In this document: positions 1-40,790 of the stretch, piece after piece | Layout of the letters: every line of letters begins with the position of its first letter | How positions within the stretch are numbered: position 1 is the first letter of the stretch | DNA from: Chloroflexota bacterium | Lineage (GTDB): Bacteria; Chloroflexota; UBA5177 | DNA: 43,333 nucleotides | Direction of reading: 5' to 3' | Assembly (NCBI GenBank): GCA_050695395.1 | Contig: JBOGSL010000155.1 | Span: 1-43,333 of the forward strand | Notes under the pieces: generated by a model | The model's input: the letters and a program-made list of their open reading frames with translations, nothing else | The model's database searches: none | Told to the model about the DNA's origin: nothing | Position numbers and translations under genes: made by a program

Positions 1-27
1 GTGCAGAGGAACAGCGTTCCTCTGCAC
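1..27 (-). terminator. Perfect 12-bp stem / 3-nt loop hairpin just downstream of the chaplin-like gene; candidate intrinsic terminator (any U-tract would lie outside the window)
   Basis: GTGCAGAGGAAC-AGC-GTTCCTCTGCAC read directly. The minus-strand stop TAA is at 45-43, 15 nt before the hairpin. Confidence 0.4.
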
Positions 28-42
28 GGCCTCTCAATCCGG

Positions 43-2481
43 TTATCGACGCATGAATTGCCTCACTATTCCCAGCCCGATCAACAGGAGACCGGAGCCG
101 ATAGGCAGGAGCGGTAACCCAGGCGAAGGTGCTCCGTCACCGCCGCCTGCGTGCGGCAGGCCCGAAAGCCGCGCCGCACTCGCAGCGCCGTTCTTCGTTA
201 CCTGAGCTCTCCGACCCAGCACTCCACGTACTGCGTGGCGGACTGCTCGACGCGTCGTCTGCCGCGCTCCCAGAACCTGGGCGTGGGGGGACGTCGAGAC
301 GAGGGTCACGGTCCCCGGGGAGGAGCTCCGTGTGCTCGACGGCGGGGTCGCGTGGGTAGACCCGACGATGGGGCTCGGGCTCGTGCTTGTCGTGCCGCGT
401 CCGCGGCCAACGGGCGCGCTCAGGCTGCTGACAGGCAAGATGCGGCTTGCCCGGGGCATCACCAGCTGGTTGTAATGAAGGGTCGTTGCGGTCGAGACGG
501 TCCCGCCGTTGCTGGTCGAGGCCGTGGTACCGCTTGTGAAACCGCCGCTGGACCCGGATCCACTGCCGCCGGGTCCATTACCGTTGCCGCCGGAACCATT
601 CCCATTGCCGCCTGATCCATTTCCTCCGCTCGTGGATCCTCCGGTGCCGCTCGTCGAGCCGCATGTGTTCTGCTGTGTGCCGCCCGCCAGCACCGCGGCA
701 TTGACGCCACACACCACAACCGGCGGATTTCCGGCGTTCACCGGTACCGAGATTACGCTGCCGCCGCCGCTATTCCCCCCGGTCGACCCGGACGTGCCCG
801 ACGTCTGACGCGCTGGCGCACATCCATTCGATTGGCTGCTTACGCCGCCGATGGCGCCGTTCACACCGCACACCGTCACGCCGGGGTTGCCCGCGTTGAT
901 CGGCGCGGAGATCACGGATCCGTTGAGCGTCGACGAACCGTTTCCGCTGCTGGACGAGCCGCTACTCTGAGTGACGGGCGCGCAGCCGTTTGATTGGCTG
1001 CTTGCCCCGCCGACCGCGGCATTGACGCCACACGCCGTCACGCCGGGGTTGCCGGCGTTAATCGGCGCGGAGATCAAGGATCCGTTGCCCGTCGACGAAC
1101 CGTTTCCGCTGTTGGACGAGCCGCTACTCTGAGTGGCAGTTGCGCAGCCGTTTGATTGGCTGCTTGCTCCCAGCGCACTTCCGTTGATGCCGCAGACCGC
1201 GGCGTTCGGATTACCCGCGTTCACCGGGATCGACGCGATGCCGTGCCCGCTTGATGGTGATCCGGCGCTGCTCGTGCCGCTCTGGTTGGTCGTCGCGCAC
1301 GTGTTGGCTTGGCTGCTCGCGCCGAGGACGCTGCCGTTAGCCCCGCACACCACCGCGTTCCCGTTGACCGCATTGATCGGTGCCGAGATTGTGCTGCCGC
1401 GTGACGAGGTCGATCCTGACGTCGCCGACCCCGCGTTTGCCTGGCTGTGCTGACTGCCGGTCGCACAACTGTTCGACTGATTTGAGAACCCGGCAACGGA
1501 CGCGTTGGCGCCGCACACAGCGGCATTCGGGTTCGCCGCGTTGACGGGGGCGGACACCAGGGACGCGCCGGCGCTGCTGCCGTTGGTGCCCGTGCTGCCG
1601 CTCGACTGATCATTTGCCGCACAACTGTTTGACTGCCCGGCCGCACCGCCCACGTTGGCATTGACGCCACAGACGCTCACATTGGGATTGACGGCGTTGA
1701 TCGGCGCCGAAACGACGTTCCCTGACTCGCCGTTTCCGCTGCTGCTGCTGCTGCCGGAACTCTGATTCGTCGAGGCCCCGGTGTTTGACTGAGAGGTCTG
1801 GGCGCCCGCGTTGACGTTCGCTCCTCCGGCGTAGACGTTCGGAGAAGCGGCGTTGGCAGGGGTCGTGACCGAAGGCTGGTTGGTAGAAGACCCGCTCTGA
1901 CTGCCGCTTGCCTGGATGGCAGGCGCGCAGCCGTTCGTTTGGGTGCCGGATCCTACCGCGCTGACGTTGGCCCCGCACACGTTGACATTGGCGTTGCCGC
2001 TGTTGACGGGAGCGGACGCGGTCGATGGGCCCGGCGATGCCGAGCCCGAGCTCGATCCGCTTGTCTGGGAGCTAGGAGCGCAGCCGTTCGTCTGGCCGGC
2101 GCTGCCGCCAACATTGGCGTTGACGCCGCACACGGTCACGCTCGGATTAGCCGCGTTCACGGGAGCCGAGACGAGCGCGTTTCCGCCGCCGTTGCTCGCG
2201 CTCGAGCTCTGGCTGGAAGGTGCGCACTGCTGACTCTGCGCCGACGTGCCGCCAACATTAGCGTTGACGCCGCACACCGTCACGTTGGGATTGGCGCCGT
2301 TGACCGGCGCGGAGACCACGGATCCGGATCCGTTGGCTGCTGCTGATGTAGTGACCTGCGCCGCGTGCCCGATGCCATCCGCGAAGGCGGAGTGGCCGAG
2401 CAGAACGGTGGCGATCACGGTACCGATCACGGCGACGGCAAGTCGCAGGAACAACGAGATCGGCAAACGTTGACGTTGCAT
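43..2481 (-). CDS. Secreted cell-surface protein with 11 tandem chaplin-like (two-Cys) repeats, a Gly/Ser/Asn spacer, a basic Ser/Thr/Pro linker and a sortase-type C-terminal signal (LPHAG + TM + RQFMRR)
   Basis: The ORF runs to a GTG at 2505. I prefer the ATG at 2481, which is preceded by GGAGGA. The signal peptide reads MQRQRLPISLFLRLAVAVIGTVIATVLLGHSAFA. The repeated unit is xSAPVNAxNPxVxVCGxNxxVGGxxxQxNxC. Every Cys of the protein (20) lies in these units. Confidence 0.9.
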   Translation of the reverse strand: MQRQRLPISLFLRLAVAVIGTVIATVLLGHSAFADGIGHAAQVTTSAAANGSGSVVSAPVNGANPNVTVCGVNANVGGTSAQSQQCAPSSQSSSASNGGGNALVSAPVNAANPSVTVCGVNANVGGSAGQTNGCAPSSQTSGSSSGSASPGPSTASAPVNSGNANVNVCGANVSAVGSGTQTNGCAPAIQASGSQSGSSTNQPSVTTPANAASPNVYAGGANVNAGAQTSQSNTGASTNQSSGSSSSSGNGESGNVVSAPINAVNPNVSVCGVNANVGGAAGQSNSCAANDQSSGSTGTNGSSAGASLVSAPVNAANPNAAVCGANASVAGFSNQSNSCATGSQHSQANAGSATSGSTSSRGSTISAPINAVNGNAVVCGANGSVLGASSQANTCATTNQSGTSSAGSPSSGHGIASIPVNAGNPNAAVCGINGSALGASSQSNGCATATQSSGSSNSGNGSSTGNGSLISAPINAGNPGVTACGVNAAVGGASSQSNGCAPVTQSSGSSSSGNGSSTLNGSVISAPINAGNPGVTVCGVNGAIGGVSSQSNGCAPARQTSGTSGSTGGNSGGGSVISVPVNAGNPPVVVCGVNAAVLAGGTQQNTCGSTSGTGGSTSGGNGSGGNGNGSGGNGNGPGGSGSGSSGGFTSGTTASTSNGGTVSTATTLHYNQLVMPRASRILPVSSLSAPVGRGRGTTSTSPSPIVGSTHATPPSSTRSSSPGTVTLVSTSPHAQVLGARQTTRRAVRHAVRGVLGRRAQVTKNGAASAARLSGLPHAGGGDGAPSPGLPLLPIGSGLLLIGLGIVRQFMRR
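590..2320 (-). repeat. In-frame tandem coding repeats (about 50-53 codons each, 11 units, unit 4 degenerate and Cys-free) inside the chaplin-like gene
   Basis: The periodic VCG...C motif is seen in the translated ORF. Coordinates are approximate, derived from residues about 63-640. Confidence 0.8.
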
Positions 2482-2499
2482 GATTCCTCCTCGAGTGGT

Positions 2500-2517
2500 C
2501 GACACACGAGTGTGTCG
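2500..2517. promoter_or_regulatory. Perfect 8+8 inverted repeat CGACACAC-GA-GTGTGTCG, 19-36 nt upstream of the preferred ATG of the chaplin-like gene; candidate operator or leader hairpin
   Basis: Read directly from the sequence. It lies in the 93-bp gap between the two surface-protein genes. Confidence 0.2.
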
Positions 2518-2574
2518 CCGGTTCGCTAGGGTCGCGTTGCCCTCGCGAAGGCGTGAGCCCTCACGAGCGCGACC

Positions 2575-3972
2575 TCAGCCGGGAGGAACCGGGTTTGAGA
2601 GAGTGACCCCTACGGGGATCAGGACGCGGCGCCTCCGGACGGCGAACCAGACCTCGAGCAGGAGTATGCCCAGCGTCAGGAGCAGGGCACCGGCCGAGGC
2701 GCCGGAGACGAACGAGAGACCTGTTGATAGAGCGCCGCCGGGACCGTTGGCGAGTGGCGACGGCAGATATGGAACAGCAGGCGAAGCCGGTGATCCGCGA
2801 TGAGAGTCAGCGGAGGCGCCACGACCCGATGTCGCCACAAGAGCGCTCGACTCTGCCGCACGGTTCTCCGAGAACGGAGCGACGACAGAAACGAGGGCCC
2901 TCGGGAATCGCGACAGGTTCGCGGAGACCACTGGGCCGTTCGCGGGCACATTCTTGGTGGCCGACGAGTGCAGCGGGCGATCTGCCAAGCTCGCGTATCG
3001 CGCTGCATGCCCCGCTGAGCCGCCCACGGTCTGTGCTCTACGTGTCTCGGGGAAGATCGTTCGCTGGACCGTCGCCTGACGGCTAGCCCGGGCGGACCTA
3101 TGAACGGGGCCGGCCGGCCGTCGCGCGATCGGTGAGTTGTTCCGGTACGAGTTCGTGGTGCTGATCGGCCGCTTGCTGCCCTCCGCTACCGCGCGTTGGG
3201 CCGGATCTCCGCGCCCGACAGTAGAAAGAGGCGAACGGTCGGAGGCACGTGACCGTTGAATCGTCCGAGTGCGGGCCGGCGAGGTCGATCGCGGCGAGGT
3301 GCCCGGCCTGGAGGCAGGCGAAGAGCGGACCAAGGTCGCTCTGGCGTTTGTGATTCTGCCGGATGCGGTCTGTGCCGGTTCGCTCGCCGTCCGGGCCGTC
3401 GTGCTCACGACCGAGGAAGCGGTCGACGTTGCCGTGCCGGCGGTGCTGCTCGCCGCTTGACCTGCTTGGCTCGCCGCGGCGCTTCCGGTAGCGACAGTTC
3501 CGGTTACGGCGTTCGTCGCTGAATTGACGGTAGTTTGGGCAGAGCCCGCGACCGGGGCTGCCGCTTGGGTTGCGCTGGTCGTGGTCTGGTTGACGGTTGC
3601 GGCCGTCGTTCCCGTCGTCGCTTTCACGGTACTTGTGGTGGTGTCGACTGTCTGATGGGCGGTAGTCGAGACACTGGAGGTGGATGATGTCACGGTCCGA
3701 GTGGCCGAGGACGTGGTCTTGCCGGTGGTGGCCGACGCGCCGTTGATGGTTGACGACGCCGTGGCGGTTGCGCCTTTGACGGTCGAGCTTGTCGCCGAGG
3801 TGGCCTTGCTTGTGGTGGACGACGCGGCGTTACCGACCGCGGTGGTCACGGGCGCTAGTGGGGGCGAGGCCGCGAAGGCCCGCTGCGAGCCAAATAGCAC
3901 GACAAGAATGACGCTCGCGAGGATTGCGGCCGCGAGGCCCATCAGTCGACCTATGGTTTGTGCTGTGTTCAT
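2575..3972 (-). CDS. Secreted Thr/Ser/Ala-rich low-complexity surface protein with a basic Pro/Arg/Ser linker and a C-terminal TM helix followed by RRRR
   Basis: The ORF is 2575-4005 with a GTG at 4005. The ATG at 3972 gives the signal-like N-terminus MNTAQTIGRLMGLAAAILASVILVVLFGSQRAFA. A long T/S/A-rich tract follows. The C-terminus reads LANGPGGALSTGLSFVSGASAGALLLTLGILLLEVWFAVRRRR. The start is uncertain. Confidence 0.7.
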   Translation of the reverse strand: MNTAQTIGRLMGLAAAILASVILVVLFGSQRAFAASPPLAPVTTAVGNAASSTTSKATSATSSTVKGATATASSTINGASATTGKTTSSATRTVTSSTSSVSTTAHQTVDTTTSTVKATTGTTAATVNQTTTSATQAAAPVAGSAQTTVNSATNAVTGTVATGSAAASQAGQAASSTAGTATSTASSVVSTTARTASEPAQTASGRITNARATLVRSSPASRPGTSPRSTSPARTRTIQRSRASDRSPLSTVGRGDPAQRAVAEGSKRPISTTNSYRNNSPIARRPAGPVHRSARASRQATVQRTIFPETRRAQTVGGSAGHAARYASLADRPLHSSATKNVPANGPVVSANLSRFPRALVSVVAPFSENRAAESSALVATSGRGASADSHRGSPASPAVPYLPSPLANGPGGALSTGLSFVSGASAGALLLTLGILLLEVWFAVRRRRVLIPVGVTLSNPVPPG

Positions 3973-4131
3973 GGTTGTCGAGGGAAGGCCTGTTCCCACC
4001 TCCACACTTCCAATCTAGACTCGCGTTTGTCGAAAAATCAGCGGCACGGGGTTACGGTTGGGTTTCGAATCGCGGATGGTAGAAACGCGTTGCAGAGCCG
4101 CTGGCTCATCCCGGCGGGCTAAGATTGGCGT

Positions 4132-4614
4132 GTGAACTGGGTCGATATTGCCATCGTGGTGCTCCTCGCGCTTGATGTTCTGTACGGGCTGCACCGTGGC
4201 TTCATTCTCGAGGTGGCCACGATTATCGGTGTGCTCGCTGCCCTAGCCGTGGCCAAGGCGGACTACTCGGTAGTGCGCAACCTGCTCGATCCGCTGGTTC
4301 ACGGGCACCCACACTGGCTCACCGTAGTCTCGTATCTCATAGTCTTTGTGGTGGTCTGGGCCGCCATCCTGGTGGTGGCGGGCAGGATTCGCAGCCTGAT
4401 CCATCTGCTCTTTCTGGGCTGGCTCGATCGGCTGGCCGGTGGCTTCGTGGGCCTGATCCAGGGACTGATACTGGTCGTCGTTTTGCTCGGCCTGGCCAAA
4501 CACTATCCCAACCACACCTTGCGTCACGCCCTGCATCACTCTCAGCTAGCCTCGAGCCTTGGTCGAGCCGGACCCTACGTGGATCACCTCTTGCCCCACG
4601 CCCAGTATTACTAA
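4132..4614 (+). CDS. cvpA: CvpA family (colicin V production) integral membrane protein
   Basis: GTG start. The N-terminus MNWVDIAIVVLLALDVLYGLHRGFILEVATIIG is typical of CvpA. About four TM segments. Confidence 0.75.
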   Translation: MNWVDIAIVVLLALDVLYGLHRGFILEVATIIGVLAALAVAKADYSVVRNLLDPLVHGHPHWLTVVSYLIVFVVVWAAILVVAGRIRSLIHLLFLGWLDRLAGGFVGLIQGLILVVVLLGLAKHYPNHTLRHALHHSQLASSLGRAGPYVDHLLPHAQYY

Positions 4615-16509: not shown

Positions 16510-18780
16510 CTACCCGTTGGCTTCCGGACTCGTCACGATGACTTCTTCTACCGGCGGCTCGTCGGACGAGGTGGTGTCACCCATGTAGCCCGCGTCGGGC
16601 GGATCGTACGGATCGGGGTCATGACCGGTGCCGACCTCGACGCCGCCGCTGGTTGTGCCCGAGTAGCCGCTTCCCTCTCGTACAGTACCGGGGCCCGCGA
16701 TTTCGTCGCCCGTTGGAAAGGGAGCGCTGTGGGTGCTCGGCGCGACCTCGTTGTCAGGTTGATTGTCCTTCGTCATGCCGTCCTCCGTTGCCATCGCTGA
16801 TGCCACCCGCATCATCCGTACCGCGGCACCGCGGAGGCGCGTGCCGTTTGTTTCGGGAGCAACGTAGCGCAACGTGAGCCGGCCGTTGGTCTGTCGCTTG
16901 AGGACATCCCCCGACTGCGCGCCCCACCGGTACTCGATCCATTGACGGTGGTAGTCGCTGGGCGTTTCTACCGTAAGTACGCCATCTGCGCACGACAGGG
17001 GGCGGAGCGGCGCAAACCAGCCCTCGATAGCAAGCGCCCCGACCGACTTCTCAAGCTCGCGGCAAAGGAGGCTCCACTCCGCCGTTCCTTCGCTGACAGG
17101 TGTGCGTGGGCTACCATGGCTTTCCTTGCCGTTGTCACTGCCGTGATGGGCACCATTTCCATTGGCGTGAGCTACGCCATTCCCGTTGGTGTGGCCGGCG
17201 TCACCGACGGAAATCGGCGCGAGCTCAGCCTGCCAATCCGGACGAGCCGGCACCGGCGGCGTCGGCTCGCCCTTTCTCGTTTCATATCCGTAGGGCTGAT
17301 AGTTGTCGCTGCGATAGTAGGAGTCATTGCCGCGATTGACGCAGTTTACGATGCAACCGGCGATGTTGATGCCGGACGGCCCCAGTACCTCGATCGTTCG
17401 CGCCACCGTCCGTCGCGTGGTCGAGCCGAGACGGACGACGAGGACCGCTGCATCACAAAGGCCGGACAGGATTGCCGAGTCGGCGAGAGGAAGCACCGGG
17501 GGACTGTCGATTACCACGATGTCAGCGTGATCTTGTAGCTCGCGTAGAACCTGCCCCATCCGGTGGGAACTGATGATTGGGCCGGGATTGGGCGGCAGGG
17601 GGCCGCTGACTATTACTCGAAGTCGAGGCTGCTCCGTAGGGAGCAAGTAGTCTTCCGTAGTAGCCGATTCGTCCAACAACAAGCTGGTCAGACCCGGCTG
17701 TACGTCCGGGTGAAAGATGGAGGCGACACTTGGCCTGCGTAAATCCAGATCGACCAGGATGGTCGACTTGCCGGATTCGGCGAAAGCCGAGGCTAGATTG
17801 CTGGCCACGGTTGACTTGCCTTCTCCCTCCATCGCACTCGTGACGAGCAGGGTACGGGGGTGCTTGTCCAGCGTGGTGAAGGCGATGTCCGCGCGCGCAA
17901 GGCGGAAGGCTTCGGCCACGGGCGAGGACGGGTGATGGGCGAGGATCAGCGATCGGTCCGAGGGGCGCTTGCGTGGGAACTCGCGTGTGTCGGGAATGGC
18001 GCTGAGTATGGGAAGGTCGGTGACGCGGCTCAGGTCCTCGGATCGGCGAATGGTGCTGTCCATCTGGTCGATAGCTACGCCGCCTACTCCGACGATGAGG
18101 AATACCAGCAAAAAGGCCAACGCGGCATTCAGCGACCGGTGCGGGCTGCTCGGCGTCAGGGGCGCCACTGCCGGGGAAACAACACGAACTATGTTTGACC
18201 GCTGCAGCTCCGCCATGCGGGTGTTGTTTTCTACCTGAACAAGATTGTCGTAGCGGTTTCTGTCGTGCGCTCTCTTGGCGGCGTGTTCGTCGCTTTCTAT
18301 CCGGTCGAGGAGTGCCTTGTAGAGCGACTGATCCCACGACTGCTGCCCCTTGATGAACACCCTGGCGACGGCGTTGACCATTGCGGCCGCCAGCACCGGA
18401 TCGTGAGACGTGGCGGAGCAGCTGAAAAGCGATGTAGTCCCGCTGCTCTGGCAGACCAAGTTTTGGGTAAGGACCTTCTTTTCCCCCGCTGATAGCGTGG
18501 GGTGCAGCGCCCCTTTGACCATAGCCAGCGCAGCTTTGATGTTGGGGGGCTGCGCCGCGACCGTGGCGTCCGTGAGCGCGCCGGCGCTGTCGTACTGGGG
18601 ATCAACCGGATTTGCCTGACTGGGTTGGCCGATCTGCACCTGCATCACGCTGGTGGCCGTGTAGAGCGGGCGAATCTCGTACTTCGTGTAGACATACGAT
18701 CCCGCCCCGGCCAGCAGGGCTAGCACCAGGGCTATAGGCAGCCAGCGCTTTGCAATTCGAAAGTAATCGTTCAGCCGCAC
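16510..18780 (-). CDS. Polysaccharide co-polymerase / BY-kinase (Wzz domain + CpsD/Etk-like tyrosine autokinase) with a roughly 255-aa C-terminal extension
   Basis: N-terminal TM plus a Wzz-like periplasmic region and a second TM (LAFLLVFLIVGVGGV). Walker A is SAMEGEGKST, Walker A' is ILVDLDLRRP and Walker B is IVVIDSPPV. The Tyr cluster reads DSYYRSDNYQPYGYE. A long extra tail follows. GTG start. Confidence 0.9.
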   Translation of the reverse strand: MRLNDYFRIAKRWLPIALVLALLAGAGSYVYTKYEIRPLYTATSVMQVQIGQPSQANPVDPQYDSAGALTDATVAAQPPNIKAALAMVKGALHPTLSAGEKKVLTQNLVCQSSGTTSLFSCSATSHDPVLAAAMVNAVARVFIKGQQSWDQSLYKALLDRIESDEHAAKRAHDRNRYDNLVQVENNTRMAELQRSNIVRVVSPAVAPLTPSSPHRSLNAALAFLLVFLIVGVGGVAIDQMDSTIRRSEDLSRVTDLPILSAIPDTREFPRKRPSDRSLILAHHPSSPVAEAFRLARADIAFTTLDKHPRTLLVTSAMEGEGKSTVASNLASAFAESGKSTILVDLDLRRPSVASIFHPDVQPGLTSLLLDESATTEDYLLPTEQPRLRVIVSGPLPPNPGPIISSHRMGQVLRELQDHADIVVIDSPPVLPLADSAILSGLCDAAVLVVRLGSTTRRTVARTIEVLGPSGINIAGCIVNCVNRGNDSYYRSDNYQPYGYETRKGEPTPPVPARPDWQAELAPISVGDAGHTNGNGVAHANGNGAHHGSDNGKESHGSPRTPVSEGTAEWSLLCRELEKSVGALAIEGWFAPLRPLSCADGVLTVETPSDYHRQWIEYRWGAQSGDVLKRQTNGRLTLRYVAPETNGTRLRGAAVRMMRVASAMATEDGMTKDNQPDNEVAPSTHSAPFPTGDEIAGPGTVREGSGYSGTTSGGVEVGTGHDPDPYDPPDAGYMGDTTSSDEPPVEEVIVTSPEANG

Positions 18781-35996: not shown

Positions 35997-36758
35997 CTAT
36001 CCCGCTGCCTCGACTGCCGTGGCCGATAACTCGAGATCCGCCCGCGTGCCGATCGCTGTGATCTCGCCCCGTTGGTATCGATAAACACCGGACAGGTCGT
36101 TGATGTGCGTAAGAACGAACTCGAGATCAGCATCCTGGCCGCTGCGGCGAAGATACTCCGCGCTCTTCCCGCCCAGGATCGCCTCGACCGGAGCCTCCGC
36201 CCAGCGGTCGATCACGGCGCGAGTCTGTTCATTCACCGGCTGGTATCCGGCCTCGAGCAGTCCCGCCGCCACGAGAGCACAGCCAAGTTGGTCCTCTTCG
36301 CGGAACTCGGCCCGCGATCCCGCTCCGATAATCGCGACCCTGGGGTGGCGATCGACGAGATATTCGATCTGAGCGCTGTAGTTGCGCAGACATGCGACAT
36401 ACATGGCCTGCGACTCGGCGGCGTTGCAGATGAGCTGAGTTCCCGAGGTGGAGAGCAGAATCATGGGCCGGTCTATGTCGCTTCGACGAGCGACCTGGGC
36501 CGGGCTGTTGGTGATATGGAACCCGTACGGCATATTGCCGCCCAGTTCTCCCGCCAGCAGCGGATAGTTGAGCCAGGCCGCCACGGGCACCGCCGCCTCG
36601 AGCGACGGGACCGGAAAGCAGCGGCGTCCCAAATCAACGGCCGTAACGGCTGTCGTGGTAGCGCGGATGACATCGATGGCCACAACGGCGTATCCGCCGG
36701 CGTACGACGAGACACTTTCGGGGAAACAGTCAATGGCGACCAGGCGAGGCACCGACAC
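35997..36758 (-). CDS. comB: 2-phosphosulfolactate phosphatase (ComB family)
   Basis: VVAIDVIRATTTAVTA, LAGELGGNMPYGFHITNSP and LLSTSGTQ match ComB-family signatures. The GTG start lies 1 nt after the comA stop. Confidence 0.8.
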   Translation of the reverse strand: MSVPRLVAIDCFPESVSSYAGGYAVVAIDVIRATTTAVTAVDLGRRCFPVPSLEAAVPVAAWLNYPLLAGELGGNMPYGFHITNSPAQVARRSDIDRPMILLSTSGTQLICNAAESQAMYVACLRNYSAQIEYLVDRHPRVAIIGAGSRAEFREEDQLGCALVAAGLLEAGYQPVNEQTRAVIDRWAEAPVEAILGGKSAEYLRRSGQDADLEFVLTHINDLSGVYRYQRGEITAIGTRADLELSATAVEAAG

Positions 36759-36759
36759 G

Positions 36760-37569
36760 CTACGCCCTATCCGCTCGCGGCCGCAGATTTGGCTTGGCGA
36801 AAGCGTCGGAATGTAGGCCGCGTCGGTAGATCTCGACTCTCAGTAGCTCCTCTAACCGGACGTTACAGAGCTGCACTTGATTGCCGAAGTGATCGAGCAG
36901 GGCGAACTGGCTGGGCTTGTTGGGGGCCTCGAACATCACGGTGTCGAGCCCAAACGCCCCGGCGAATCGATCGGCGAAGGCCGGATTAAAGTGGCCGCTG
37001 TCGTCGAAAAGTCCCACACCCTGCGCACTTTCCCGCGCCTCGACCACGAGCCGCTTCGCTCCCGCCTCCAGCCAGCTGTAACCTTGCTGGATTAGCTCGT
37101 TGACCGTTTCGTCCACGAACGGTCCGGTGTGTTTTTTGCCCAGCTCGAACTGAACCTCGAGGCCACGCTCTGATGCCATTCCGATGATCTTGTTGGGGTC
37201 CAGAGCCACATCGGTGAAACCCTCGCCGCACTCGATTCCCGCAGCACCCACATCTGCGCATAGATCGAGGTAAGCCTCGAGCTCACCTTGGGTCACTGCG
37301 ACCTCGAACGGTCCGCCGCCAGTGCAGGTGGCCACGCCGTGCTCTCGAGCGGCGGCGAACTTGCGCCGCGTCGCAGCTTCGTCCGCCACCAGCCAACAGG
37401 CCATAGAGATCTTCAGCGATGACATCAGGTGTGCACTCTGGTCTAGATGGCTCTCCAGCGTCACAGGGTCGTACCCCGGATCGAAGGGGCTGGTCAGAGG
37501 CTGCAAATCCGGAACACCAATGCGATGCAGGTAATCACGAGTGGTGGGGCGACTGGCAATATCGGTCAT
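36760..37569 (-). CDS. comA: (2R)-phospho-3-sulfolactate synthase (ComA family)
   Basis: ATG at 37569 with AAGGA upstream. VVEARESAQGVGLFDDSG and VMFEAPNKPSQFALLDHFGNQVQLCNVRLEELLRVEIYRRGLHSDAF closely parallel methanogen ComA as I recall it (IIEGRESGKSIGLFDKEG and VIFEAPQKSQQVAFILKFG...LETLRRGLRGDTF). Confidence 0.85.
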   Translation of the reverse strand: MTDIASRPTTRDYLHRIGVPDLQPLTSPFDPGYDPVTLESHLDQSAHLMSSLKISMACWLVADEAATRRKFAAAREHGVATCTGGGPFEVAVTQGELEAYLDLCADVGAAGIECGEGFTDVALDPNKIIGMASERGLEVQFELGKKHTGPFVDETVNELIQQGYSWLEAGAKRLVVEARESAQGVGLFDDSGHFNPAFADRFAGAFGLDTVMFEAPNKPSQFALLDHFGNQVQLCNVRLEELLRVEIYRRGLHSDAFAKPNLRPRADRA

Positions 37570-37619
37570 AGAAACGTCCTTCTCGCTAAAGCTGCGACAC
37601 CTTCTCGCAACGTGGGGAG

Positions 37620-37648
37620 AGCATAGCACGGAAGCAGGATGACGGCAA
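37620..37648 (-). promoter_or_regulatory. Candidate sigma70-type promoter of the comA operon: -35 TTGCCG, 17-nt spacer, -10 TATGCT
   Basis: The minus strand reads TTGCCG(37648-37643)-17 nt-TATGCT(37625-37620), about 50 nt upstream of the comA ATG. This is a pattern match only. Confidence 0.3.
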
Positions 37649-38527: not shown

Positions 38528-39796
38528 ATGCTTGGCGGAGACGTGTCGGCCCGGACCGGCCTGGGGGAGCGCGAAGTGCGAGAGGCGGCGAGGCCGCTGG
38601 TCAGCCATGTGATCACGCTGGGTGATCCGATGACGGGTGCCCAGCTCAACACTCTGACTTGCTTGCAAAAAACCCAGGCGCGGTATGGTGTCGAGCTCGT
38701 GATGGGTTGCGATGGACCGATGCGCCAGGCCTGTCACGACAGAGGGATTCGCGCGTTGGTCATCCCATTCAAAAACACGATGCTTGCTCCGTTCGCCGAT
38801 ATTCGCGCCATCGTAGCCCTTATTCGCCACTTCCGCCGTGTCCATCCCGAGATTGTGCAGACGCACTCCAGTAAAGCCGGCGTGCTGGGAAGGATTGCGG
38901 CGCGTCTCGCCGGTGTCCCGATCGTCGTCCATACCTGGCACGGCCCGTCCTTTCATGAGACGCAGCCCCCAATAGTGCAGTTTGTGCTCCGCTCGCTTGA
39001 GCGATTGCTGAGCGGCCTCACCGACTTTCACGTCTGCGTGGCGGATACGTTGCGCGCCGATCTGATCGACTCAAAAATTGCGGTGCCTGAACGGATCGCC
39101 ACGGTACGTAGCGGCATTCGAGCCGAACCGTTCCGAACACATCGAGCAGACGCCCGCCGAGAGATTCGACGCGAGCTCAATATATCGGCGGAGGCGCCGG
39201 TGATTATCAGCGTTGGAACGTTGCAAGCCAATAAGGCTCATCACCTGCTGATCGAAGCTGCACGGAGGCTGCTGCACCGCTATCCTGACTCTCGCTTCCT
39301 TATTGCCGGGCCGGCCGTGATGCTTGAGTCCGAGGTCCCGGGCGACCTTCAGCGACGAATCGACCAGGCCGCCATTGGAGATCGAGTCCAGCTCCTGGGA
39401 TCGCGCCAGGATGTGCCGTCGCTGTTGGCGGCTTCGGACATCTTTGTTCTCACGTCATGGCGCGAAGGGTTGCCTCGATCCGTCATCGAGGCCTTATGCA
39501 GCGGGCTGCCCGTCATAGCCACCGACACGGGTTCCACACGAGACGTCGTTGTGGAAGGAGGCAACGGATTTCTCATCGGTCCAGGAGATGTCGATGCTTT
39601 GACCGATCGACTGGAGAGGCTGCTGGCTGATAAACCATTGCGGGGGGATATGGCGGCTCAAGCGTCGCGCTTTGATGCGACGAGTTGGAGCCCGGACGAG
39701 ATCGGAAAGACATACGTCGCGCTGTACCAACACCTTTTAGAACACGCAGCACCAAGCGGCGACATCCGCATGGGTGCGTCGCAGGGGGAGGCTTGA
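38528..39796 (+). CDS. Glycosyltransferase family 4 (GT-B)
   Basis: HVITLGDPMTGAQ..., IVQTHSSKAGVLGR and REGLPRSVIEALCSGLPVIATDTGSTRDVVVEGGNGFLI. The start is uncertain (ATG 38528 or GTG 38576). Confidence 0.85.
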   Translation: MLGGDVSARTGLGEREVREAARPLVSHVITLGDPMTGAQLNTLTCLQKTQARYGVELVMGCDGPMRQACHDRGIRALVIPFKNTMLAPFADIRAIVALIRHFRRVHPEIVQTHSSKAGVLGRIAARLAGVPIVVHTWHGPSFHETQPPIVQFVLRSLERLLSGLTDFHVCVADTLRADLIDSKIAVPERIATVRSGIRAEPFRTHRADARREIRRELNISAEAPVIISVGTLQANKAHHLLIEAARRLLHRYPDSRFLIAGPAVMLESEVPGDLQRRIDQAAIGDRVQLLGSRQDVPSLLAASDIFVLTSWREGLPRSVIEALCSGLPVIATDTGSTRDVVVEGGNGFLIGPGDVDALTDRLERLLADKPLRGDMAAQASRFDATSWSPDEIGKTYVALYQHLLEHAAPSGDIRMGASQGEA

Positions 39797-39797
39797 A

Positions 39798-40790
39798 GTG
39801 GTAAGGACATATCTGGTCACGGGGGCGGCTGGGTTTATTGGCAGTCACGTGGCAGAGGGCCTGTTGCGACGCGGGGATCGCGTCGTCGGACTCGATAATT
39901 TGAACGATTACTATAGCCCGGTGCGGAAGCGCGCCAATCTTCTCGAGGTGCAGAGCGGCGCACCCGATTCATTCCAGTTCGTTCAGGGCGACGTTCGCGA
40001 CTCGGGTCTGGTGAACGAACTGTTCGCTCAGGAAAACTTCTCGGCGGTGATCCATCTGGCCGCCATGGCCGGAGTGCGGGCTTCGTTGGAGGATCCGTTT
40101 CTCTATTACGACGTCAACGTCATCGGCACCTTGACCTTGCTCGAGGCCGCCCGTACCTATCACCCCAATTTTGTCTTCGCGTCTACTTCGTCCGTGTACG
40201 GCCGCACCGACAGGATTCCTTTTGTCGAAGACGACGTCTGCGATCGTCCCCTGGCTCCGTACTCCGCCAGCAAACGGGCCGCCGAGCTGCTGTGCTTCAG
40301 CTACCATCATTTGTACCGCCAGAGCGCTACCATTCTTCGCTTCTTCTCCGTGTACGGGCCCCGCGGTCGTCCCGATATGATGGCTTACAAGGTGGCGGAG
40401 AGCACATGTTCGGGGCTCCCGGTCCCGCTATATCGAGGCGGTCAGATGTACCGGGATTGGACATACGTTGACGACATCGTTCAGGGCGTTGTCGCGGCCG
40501 CGGACCGCCGTCTGGGTTACGAGATTATCAACCTGGGGGCCGGCCGGCCCGTCTTGCTGGCGGACTTCGTGGCCCAGCTCGAGACACTGTCCGGGCGAAA
40601 GGCGAATCTCGAGACGGCTACGATGCCCGATGCCGATATTGAGTACACCTACGCCGATATCAGCAAGGCGCGTGAGCTCCTGGATTATGAACCCACCATG
40701 CTTGTAGACCAGGGCGTCCCCGCCTTCTGGCGGTGGTACGCGGGCAGCGCGATCCAGGAGCCGGTCGTTGCAGCCGGCTCGGGCGTCTGA
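39798..40790 (+). CDS. NAD-dependent nucleotide-sugar 4-epimerase (UDP-glucuronate / UDP-GlcNAcA 4-epimerase-like SDR)
   Basis: GTG at 39798 with GGGGGAGG 6 nt upstream. VTGAAGFIGSH Rossmann motif and YSASKRAAE (YxxxK). Confidence 0.85.
   Translation: MVRTYLVTGAAGFIGSHVAEGLLRRGDRVVGLDNLNDYYSPVRKRANLLEVQSGAPDSFQFVQGDVRDSGLVNELFAQENFSAVIHLAAMAGVRASLEDPFLYYDVNVIGTLTLLEAARTYHPNFVFASTSSVYGRTDRIPFVEDDVCDRPLAPYSASKRAAELLCFSYHHLYRQSATILRFFSVYGPRGRPDMMAYKVAESTCSGLPVPLYRGGQMYRDWTYVDDIVQGVVAAADRRLGYEIINLGAGRPVLLADFVAQLETLSGRKANLETATMPDADIEYTYADISKARELLDYEPTMLVDQGVPAFWRWYAGSAIQEPVVAAGSGV

Follow-up and report, generated by a model that had tools for sequence, protein, structure and literature searches.

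A rare cysteine-paired repeat protein of uncultured Chloroflexota, probably held at the cell surface by a sortase-type C-terminal signal

The long chaplins of Streptomyces (Actinomycetota; ChpA-C, PF03777) are Sec-exported proteins in which two small two-cysteine units precede the sorting signal LAxTG. Curli CsgA and Pseudomonas FapC are built from tandem, imperfect, near-uncharged and beta-prone secreted repeats rich in Asn, Gln, Gly and Ser. The LPXTG-anchored tandem-repeat proteins of monoderm bacteria provide a further point of comparison, with a signal peptide, a repeat array of varying number, a Pro/Ser/Thr-rich wall-proximal region, and a C-terminal pentapeptide followed by a hydrophobic segment and a basic tail. 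Chaplins are highly hydrophobic, the long forms being sortase-anchored and the short forms secreted (PMC7766987, PMC4255298), and chaplin-like genes were reported only among actinobacteria in a survey (PMC4255298). We analyzed a gene at positions 43–2481 (minus strand) of a 43,333-nucleotide stretch of DNA (hereafter, the window; contig JBOGSL010000155.1 of assembly GCA_050695395.1) from an uncultured Chloroflexota bacterium, whose product the original prediction had described as a 'poly-chaplin', that is, an eleven-fold tandem chaplin-like repeat protein with a sortase-type anchor. The best overall explanation, to which we assign a probability of about 0.6, is that the gene encodes a Sec-exported, C-terminally held cell-surface protein of cysteine-paired repeats, which would probably form a sortase-anchored fibril or coat.

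The open reading frame (ORF) had been predicted to encode a signal peptide and 11 repeats, and to end in LPHAG, a transmembrane (TM) segment and RQFMRR. Both parts of this layout were borne out, with 812 aa and 11 units of about 52 aa each (Table 1). The mechanically called ORF reaches a GTG at 2505 on the minus strand; the ATG at 2479–2481 is the likely start, because it is preceded at 5 nt by GGAGG and because the closest homologue begins with the same residues, MQRQR. The signal peptide, as read from the sequence, spans residues 1–34 (MQRQRLPISLFLRLAVAVIGTVIATVLLGHSAFA, followed by DG); a basic n-region precedes an h-region of 20 residues, and A-F-A stands directly before D, the AxA site being conserved in the signal peptides of homologues. 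The C-terminus ends in ...LSGLPHAGGGDGAPSPGLPLLPIGSGLLLIGLGIVRQFMRR. The repeat region is nearly free of charged residues (3 D/E and 2 K/R in 577 residues), and the stalk that follows contains 14 K/R and no D/E.

Database and contig scans indicated that the repeat family is genuine and very rare, with all members found to date coming from uncultured Chloroflexota-type organisms. A word-indexed search of 5.8 billion proteins returned P0001, from a Joint Genome Institute (JGI) metagenome (44% identity), as the sole relative. An exhaustive search of 1.84 billion representative proteins with a 20-unit profile retrieved three proteins (P0001, P0122 and P0123), the first two of which are true relatives. 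P0123 is an unrelated leucine-rich-repeat-like protein that matched by chance on 'NVAYGGLNVNYA'. Among 185,579 species genomes, one locus was found (L001, 48% identity), in a metagenome-assembled genome (MAG) of an 'uncultured Chloroflexia bacterium', and a scan of JGI metagenome contigs added four further loci (L002–L005, 41–60% identity), including the closest homologue, L002. The profile search and the two contig scans gave six relatives in total, from soil metagenomes and the one Chloroflexia MAG. At 41–60% identity, these homologues retain the paired Cys as well as the signal peptide and C-terminal signal. Unit numbers were 11 in the window protein and L004, 13 in L001, 13 detected in L002, and 15 in L003, which is N-terminally cut. 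Neither Pfam (E ≤ 1) nor NCBIfam gave a match for the whole 812-aa protein, and a Protein Data Bank sequence search with the unit profile yielded nothing beyond a 16-residue chance alignment with a ribulose-phosphate epimerase (E = 0.5).

Table 1 Features of the repeat gene and its upstream partner gene in the window, and their counterparts in the homologous protein P0001 and loci L001–L005.
Feature	Location	Strand	Details
Repeat-protein coding sequence, 812 aa	43..2481	(-)	TAA stop 43-45, ATG 2479-2481; supported by homologues
Shine-Dalgarno sequence GGAGG	2487..2491	(-)	5 nt 5' of ATG; sequence GAGGAGGAATCATG
Signal peptide, residues 1-34	2380..2481	(-)	A-F-A then D, likely cleavage site
Unit 1, residues 55-96	2194..2319	(-)	Two Cys
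Unit 2, residues 103-144	2050..2175	(-)	Two Cys
Unit 3, residues 154-195	1897..2022	(-)	Two Cys
Unit 4, residues 204-245	1747..1872	(-)	Cys-free variant; G/G at Cys positions, T/S-rich loop
Unit 5, residues 256-297	1591..1716	(-)	Two Cys
Unit 6, residues 308-349	1435..1560	(-)	Two Cys
Unit 7, residues 364-405	1267..1392	(-)	Two Cys
Unit 8, residues 415-456	1114..1239	(-)	Two Cys
Unit 9, residues 469-510	952..1077	(-)	Two Cys; shares 162-bp DNA tandem repeat with unit 10
Unit 10, residues 523-564	790..915	(-)	Two Cys
Unit 11, residues 576-617	631..756	(-)	Two Cys
Spacer, residues 612-660	502..648	(-)	Gly/Ser/Asn-rich, uncharged; 21-bp DNA repeat at 560-621
Stalk, residues 661-774	160..501	(-)	Basic, Ser/Thr/Pro/Arg-rich; putatively wall-spanning
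LPHAG pentapeptide, residues 775-779	145..159	(-)
Hydrophobic segment, residues 789-806	64..117	(-)	LPLLPIGSGLLLIGLGIV
Basic tail RQFMRR, residues 807-812	46..63	(-)
Partner gene	2575..4005	(-)	476 aa from GTG or 465 aa from ATG at 3972; directly upstream of repeat gene
Partner gene in L001	8115-9837
Partner gene in L002	171-1289
Partner gene in L005	about 380-1670
Cys-free unit, window	1747-1872	(-)	Unit 4
Cys-free units, P0001			Units 2, 3, 4 and 6
Cys-free unit, L002			Unit 4
Cys-free unit, L004			Unit 2
Cys-free subtype, L001	9890-10875
Pentapeptide at equivalent position, window			LPHAG
Pentapeptide at equivalent position, L002			MPHSG
Pentapeptide at equivalent position, L001			LPHTG
Pentapeptide at equivalent position, L003			LPLTG
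Pentapeptide at equivalent position, L004			LPRTG

The repeat gene is a genuine gene of the uncultured Chloroflexota bacterium, as shown by homologues in which signal peptide, repeat units and C-terminal signal are all retained, and by the GGAGG ahead of its ATG. The unit profile scored 547 bits on the repeat ORF and below 8 bits on all other six-frame ORFs of the window. It is extremely unlikely that the ORF is non-functional, either as a chance long frame in high-GC repetitive DNA or as a decaying pseudogene. The region has a G+C content of 66–67% with several long ORFs in other frames overlapping the repeat gene, two homologues are frameshifted, and the exact protein sequence is absent from the protein collection searched. 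However, amino-acid conservation is specific to this frame across six other contigs and extends to the Cys pairs and to both the signal peptide and the C-terminal signal, the gene has a consensus ribosome-binding site, and both frameshifted homologues lie in MAG or metagenome assemblies. In L001 (9890–12923) the units are read in three frames, and in P0001 the frameshifted residues ~480–622 form an Arg/Gln-rich tail resembling repeat DNA read out of frame (window ORF 1610–1978). The frameshifts fit sequencing error because the alternative frames still encode units; they are probably assembly errors, and pseudogenization could also account for them.

Alignment of 69 distinct units from seven proteins gave the consensus xVSAPVNAxNPNVxVCGVNANVxGxxxQSNxCAPxxQxSGS, matching the repeat core proposed earlier (SAPVNAxNPxVxVCGxNxxVGGxxxQxNxC). 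The repeat unit itself comprises 32–42 aa and was previously undescribed. Identity of the window units to unit 2 was 45–83%, and the linkers between units are uncharged and composed of Ser, Gly, Thr and Gln. The distance from first Cys to first Cys of successive Cys-bearing units is 48–56 residues, and 102 across the Cys-free unit 4. Only units 9 and 10 are still recognizable as a tandem repeat at the DNA level (162-bp period, 87% matches), suggesting that the array is old with at least one recent duplication.

A residue count agreed with the original description of ten two-Cys units that hold all 20 Cys of the protein and a Cys-free unit 4. The paired Cys are always 16 residues apart, and unit 4 has Gly at both positions. 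Across the seven proteins, both Cys were present in 61 of the 69 units, neither in eight, and a single Cys in none (Fisher's exact test on co-presence, p = 1.2e-10, with the units not being independent samples). The two Cys columns (16 and 32) were also the top covarying pair in the unit alignment. Cys-free units, found in five of the seven proteins, belong to a subtype that carries Gly or Ala in place of each Cys and has a loop rich in Thr (QSTQTTT). Wherever the N-terminal, distal part of an array is visible, any Cys-free units lie within it. Because the two Cys are kept or lost together, they probably form a disulfide within each unit. Gly24, conserved in 62 of the 69 units, lies at the midpoint between them, which makes a disulfide-closed hairpin (CGVNANV-xGx-xxQSNxC) the simplest geometry.

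The repeat protein failed every test of homology to chaplins, and the resemblance amounts to a short motif and an analogy of layout. Chaplins were represented by 22 real ChpD-type sequences carrying PF03777, the alignment of which has low diversity (Neff 1.4). A search of ten single units against the Pfam models, including the chaplin model, returned zero matches at E ≤ 10. Comparison of the unit profile with the chaplin set in hhalign gave probabilities of 0.8% (20 units) and 2.5% (69 units) and aligned 12–13 columns only (nVxVCGvNanvxG against pvnvCGntvnvig). An unfiltered chaplin-domain hidden Markov model (HMM) scored 58 real units at a mean of 1.3 bits (maximum 7.0), comparable with 1,138 scored composition-matched shuffles (mean 0.2, 99th percentile 5.3, maximum 8.5 bits). 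No chaplin was retrieved by the exhaustive unit-profile search of 1.84 billion proteins, and no short single-unit protein was found in that search, in the window or in the five related loci. The unit core is less hydrophobic than the ChpD domain, with a grand average of hydropathy of 0.27 against 0.48 (−0.09 for the whole repeat region), a V/I/L/F/M/W content of 20% against 36%, and an N/Q/S/T content of 34% against 26%. The claimed likeness to the chaplin core was therefore upheld as a real motif of 12–13 columns, and not as homology.

At the level of design, the repeat protein shares with the long chaplins Sec export, tandem small two-Cys units, a C-terminal sortase-type signal, the motif VxVCGxNxNVxG, a loop ending in NxC, and an intradomain disulfide, which is established for chaplins and presumed for the repeat units. 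It differs in having 11 units (at least 11 in homologues) rather than two, a Cys spacing of 16 rather than 18, far more polar, Asn/Ser/Gly-rich units with long uncharged linkers between them, an LPxTG-type rather than LAxTG signal, no short single-unit partner found, and a host in Chloroflexota rather than Actinomycetota. Descent of the units from a true but very diverged chaplin, forming a wall-anchored functional amyloid or hydrophobic sheath, would accommodate the single segment chosen by hhalign (P[VI]N[VL]CGN[ST][VI]N[VI][IV]G in chaplins, PNVxVCGVNANVxG in the units), the NxC loop end read from both alignments, and the slightly higher mean HMM score of real units over shuffles. It would also accommodate the joint loss of the two Cys, which recalls ChpE, where both are absent from a pair that in chaplins forms an intramolecular disulfide (PMC7766987), and the sortase signal that likewise ends the long chaplins (PMC7766987, PMC4255298). 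Nevertheless, we regard this descent as distinctly unlikely: PF03777 matched neither the whole protein nor single units, the hhalign probabilities were minimal, the best real unit scored below the best shuffle, the profile search retrieved neither chaplins nor short secreted single-unit proteins, the Cys spacing and hydrophobicity differ, and the host lies outside the actinobacteria to which the surveyed chaplin-like genes belonged (PMC4255298). As a family assignment, 'poly-chaplin' is best abandoned; as an analogy, the term can stay. Like curli CsgA and FapC, the repeat protein is a secreted protein of tandem, imperfect, nearly uncharged and beta-prone repeats rich in Asn, Gln, Gly and Ser. 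In contrast to them, it has no Pfam match to curlin or Fap repeats, has long linkers and one Cys pair per unit, and appears to be anchored rather than released; a Pfam scan of the window ORFs revealed no curli- or Fap-type secretion genes near the repeat gene.

On our best reading, the repeat unit represents a new family within the familiar architecture of wall-anchored surface proteins. The protein shares with the LPXTG-anchored tandem-repeat proteins of monoderm bacteria the signal peptide, an array of varying number (11 to at least 15 units), the Pro/Ser/Thr-rich wall-proximal region, and the succession of pentapeptide, hydrophobic segment and basic tail. It differs from them in that the unit matches no described domain, TIGR01167/PF00746-type models do not match, Thr of the pentapeptide is replaced by Ala or Ser in the window protein and its closest homologue, and about 10 residues lie between the motif and the hydrophobic segment. 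A pentapeptide was found at the equivalent position in five lineages, and three of the five are exact LPXTG motifs. In all five (general form [L/M]Px[T/A/S]G-GG), GG comes next, then a Pro-rich stretch of about 10 residues, LPxLPI with a hydrophobic stretch, and R/K, so that the hydrophobic segment and positively charged C-terminal tail are common to 5/5 lineages. The stalks preceding the pentapeptide are unalignable outside the closest pair, indicating that the pentapeptide is under selection. The proposed sortase-type anchor thus gained comparative support from the homologues (LPHTG, LPLTG, LPRTG and MPHSG), and on balance we favor anchoring of the repeat protein by a sortase. Sortases have received little study in Chloroflexota. 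An old survey mentions only a sortase-like region, of unproven function, at the N-terminus of a Chloroflexus protein (PMC1586193); our literature search on chaplins or sortases in Chloroflexi/Chloroflexota found nothing specific.

In four loci with readable DNA (the window, L001, L002 and L005), the repeat gene is immediately preceded, on its own strand, by a partner gene, and comparison of the neighborhoods of the related loci showed this partner to be the only conserved neighbor. As with the repeat protein, the exact sequence of the window partner is absent from the protein collection searched. On the P0001 contig, a 325-aa gene without a Pfam match, whose sequence was not read, occupies the directly upstream position. 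The window partner protein carries a signal peptide, followed by a periodic region rich in Thr, Ser and Ala and a basic S/P/R region, and it ends in a C-terminal TM segment, RRRR and the tail LIPVGVTLSNPVPPG. The tail is conserved as [LI]PxGIxLS[NS]PVPPG, with the cytoplasmic tail reading ...PVGI(V/T)LSNPVPPG. A weak match of the partner protein to Apolipoprotein A1/A4/E (E = 0.00096) was far below the Pfam cutoff and gives no family assignment. The 93-nt spacer between the two genes contains a perfect 7-bp hairpin (CGACACA-CTCG-TGTGTCG; 2500–2517, minus strand) just upstream of the ribosome-binding site, has a folding energy of −45.3 kcal/mol, and is largely conserved in L002, not in L001. 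A promoter and terminator scan of positions 1–4300 revealed nothing above shuffles and no terminator-like site.

Several observations weigh against a sortase-anchored surface fibril. The LPXTG-anchor and other sorting-signal HMMs of NCBIfam and Pfam gave no match (E ≤ 10) to the last 60 residues of the five C-termini; these are short models, mostly built from Firmicutes. Neither LPHAG of the window protein nor MPHSG of its closest homologue is a canonical LPXTG. A search for a sortase, limited to this 43-kb contig of the genome (Pfam on 39 window ORFs and a TLxTC motif scan), found none, and the homologues in P0001 and L001 likewise had none within 10 kb. Structure prediction of one unit and of a three-unit stretch with AlphaFold2 was run and proved uninformative. 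The single unit (20-row alignment) reached a predicted local distance difference test (pLDDT) score of 44.6, and the three-unit segment (alignment of 16 sliding windows of paralogous units) a pLDDT of 43.5; in the latter model, the unit cores contained short strands and the linkers were coil. Because these models are of low confidence, the hairpin fold gains no support from them. The proposed function is, moreover, deduced from architecture.

The same C-terminus could belong to a plain type-I membrane-anchored, mucin-like glycoprotein, in which no sortase cleavage takes place, the linkers are O-glycosylated, and the stapled units act only as spacers, rigid and resistant to proteases, within a glycocalyx or sheath. 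The absence of a sortase from the contig, the two non-canonical motifs among five and the silent anchor HMMs fit this view, as do the C-terminal TM segment that holds the partner protein itself, the Wzy_C gene directly upstream of the gene pair in L001, and the Wzy_C gene within a polysaccharide cluster of the window. However, the pentapeptide stays at a fixed distance from the TM segment in five lineages despite unalignable flanking stalks, three exact LPXTG motifs are hard to explain for a plain TM anchor, and the Wzy_C neighbor is not conserved across loci. We therefore consider a membrane-held glycoprotein unlikely.

Returning to the cell-surface protein with a probable sortase anchor, each unit would be a disulfide-stapled beta-hairpin mini-domain with its turn at Gly24, and eleven of these would be carried on a string of flexible, perhaps O-glycosylated linkers. 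A sortase encoded in another part of the genome would cut the C-terminal signal and link it to peptidoglycan; alternatively, the signal would hold the protein in the membrane. The basic stalk would then cross the wall, and the uncharged Asn/Ser/Gly/Val-rich array may form a surface fibril or coat. The repeat protein probably works with the Ser/Thr-rich membrane partner encoded directly upstream.

Lateral amyloid-like association of the Asn-rich hairpins is conceivable, and a review names Chloroflexi as one of the phyla with identified functional amyloids (PMC7766987). An extended form of this idea, which we consider unlikely, is that the Cys-stapled Asn-rich units self-associate into cross-beta sheets and build a wall-anchored functional amyloid or sheath. 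Such a structure would be a Chloroflexota counterpart of the chaplin layer, convergent or undetectably diverged, with the upstream partner as its membrane-side organizer.

Polysaccharide-related genes were present in both the window and L001. Immediately before the two-gene cassette, L001 (4173–8004) encodes an ECF-type sigma factor, a 382-aa unknown protein and a 682-aa Wzy_C (O-antigen-ligase family) membrane protein. The Wzy_C family includes protein O-oligosaccharyltransferases. The window lacks this arrangement, which in L001 may point to regulated O-glycosylation of the Ser/Thr-rich proteins. The window contains a large polysaccharide biosynthesis cluster (18862–42118) with a Wzy_C ligase/polymerase, a flippase, four GT4 glycosyltransferases, a polysaccharide deacetylase, FkbM/TylF-type methyltransferases, an epimerase and a UDP-glucose dehydrogenase. 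It also includes homologues of ComA and ComB (phosphosulfolactate synthase and phosphatase; 35997–37629), which hint at a sulfonated sugar or acid substituent. The cluster is headed by an unusual fusion, a 756-aa protein (16510–18780, minus strand) with weak GNVR (sub-threshold) and ParA/MinD-type P-loop ATPase matches that recall a polysaccharide co-polymerase or BY-kinase, and with a match to the DnaA N-terminal domain (PF11638, E = 2e-7). ARAGORN called a 90-nt tRNA-Gln(CTG) at 40698–40787 (plus strand), within the 3' end of the epimerase ORF (39774–40790) and overlapping the mechanical start of the UDP-glucose dehydrogenase ORF (40733). The overlap implies a spurious tRNA call or ORFs extended too far at their ends. 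The window also codes for a RecJ with 100% identity to MGH2447939.1.

Chloroflexota abound in soil, most of them have not been cultured, and few of their cell-surface proteins have been charted. If the proposed reading is true, a lineage-specific surface protein that combines disulfide-stapled mini-repeats with an LPXTG-type signal would point to sortase-type wall anchoring in Chloroflexota and provide a handle on their envelope or sheath. Should the units form amyloid-like sheets, they would represent an independent invention of the chaplin design, and their gene would be the first candidate, at the level of genes, for the amyloid-like material that staining reveals on the surface of Chloroflexi. 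Even if neither anchoring nor amyloid formation holds, the repeat would still be a clean new domain family, and with its partner a conserved two-gene cassette, for family databases.

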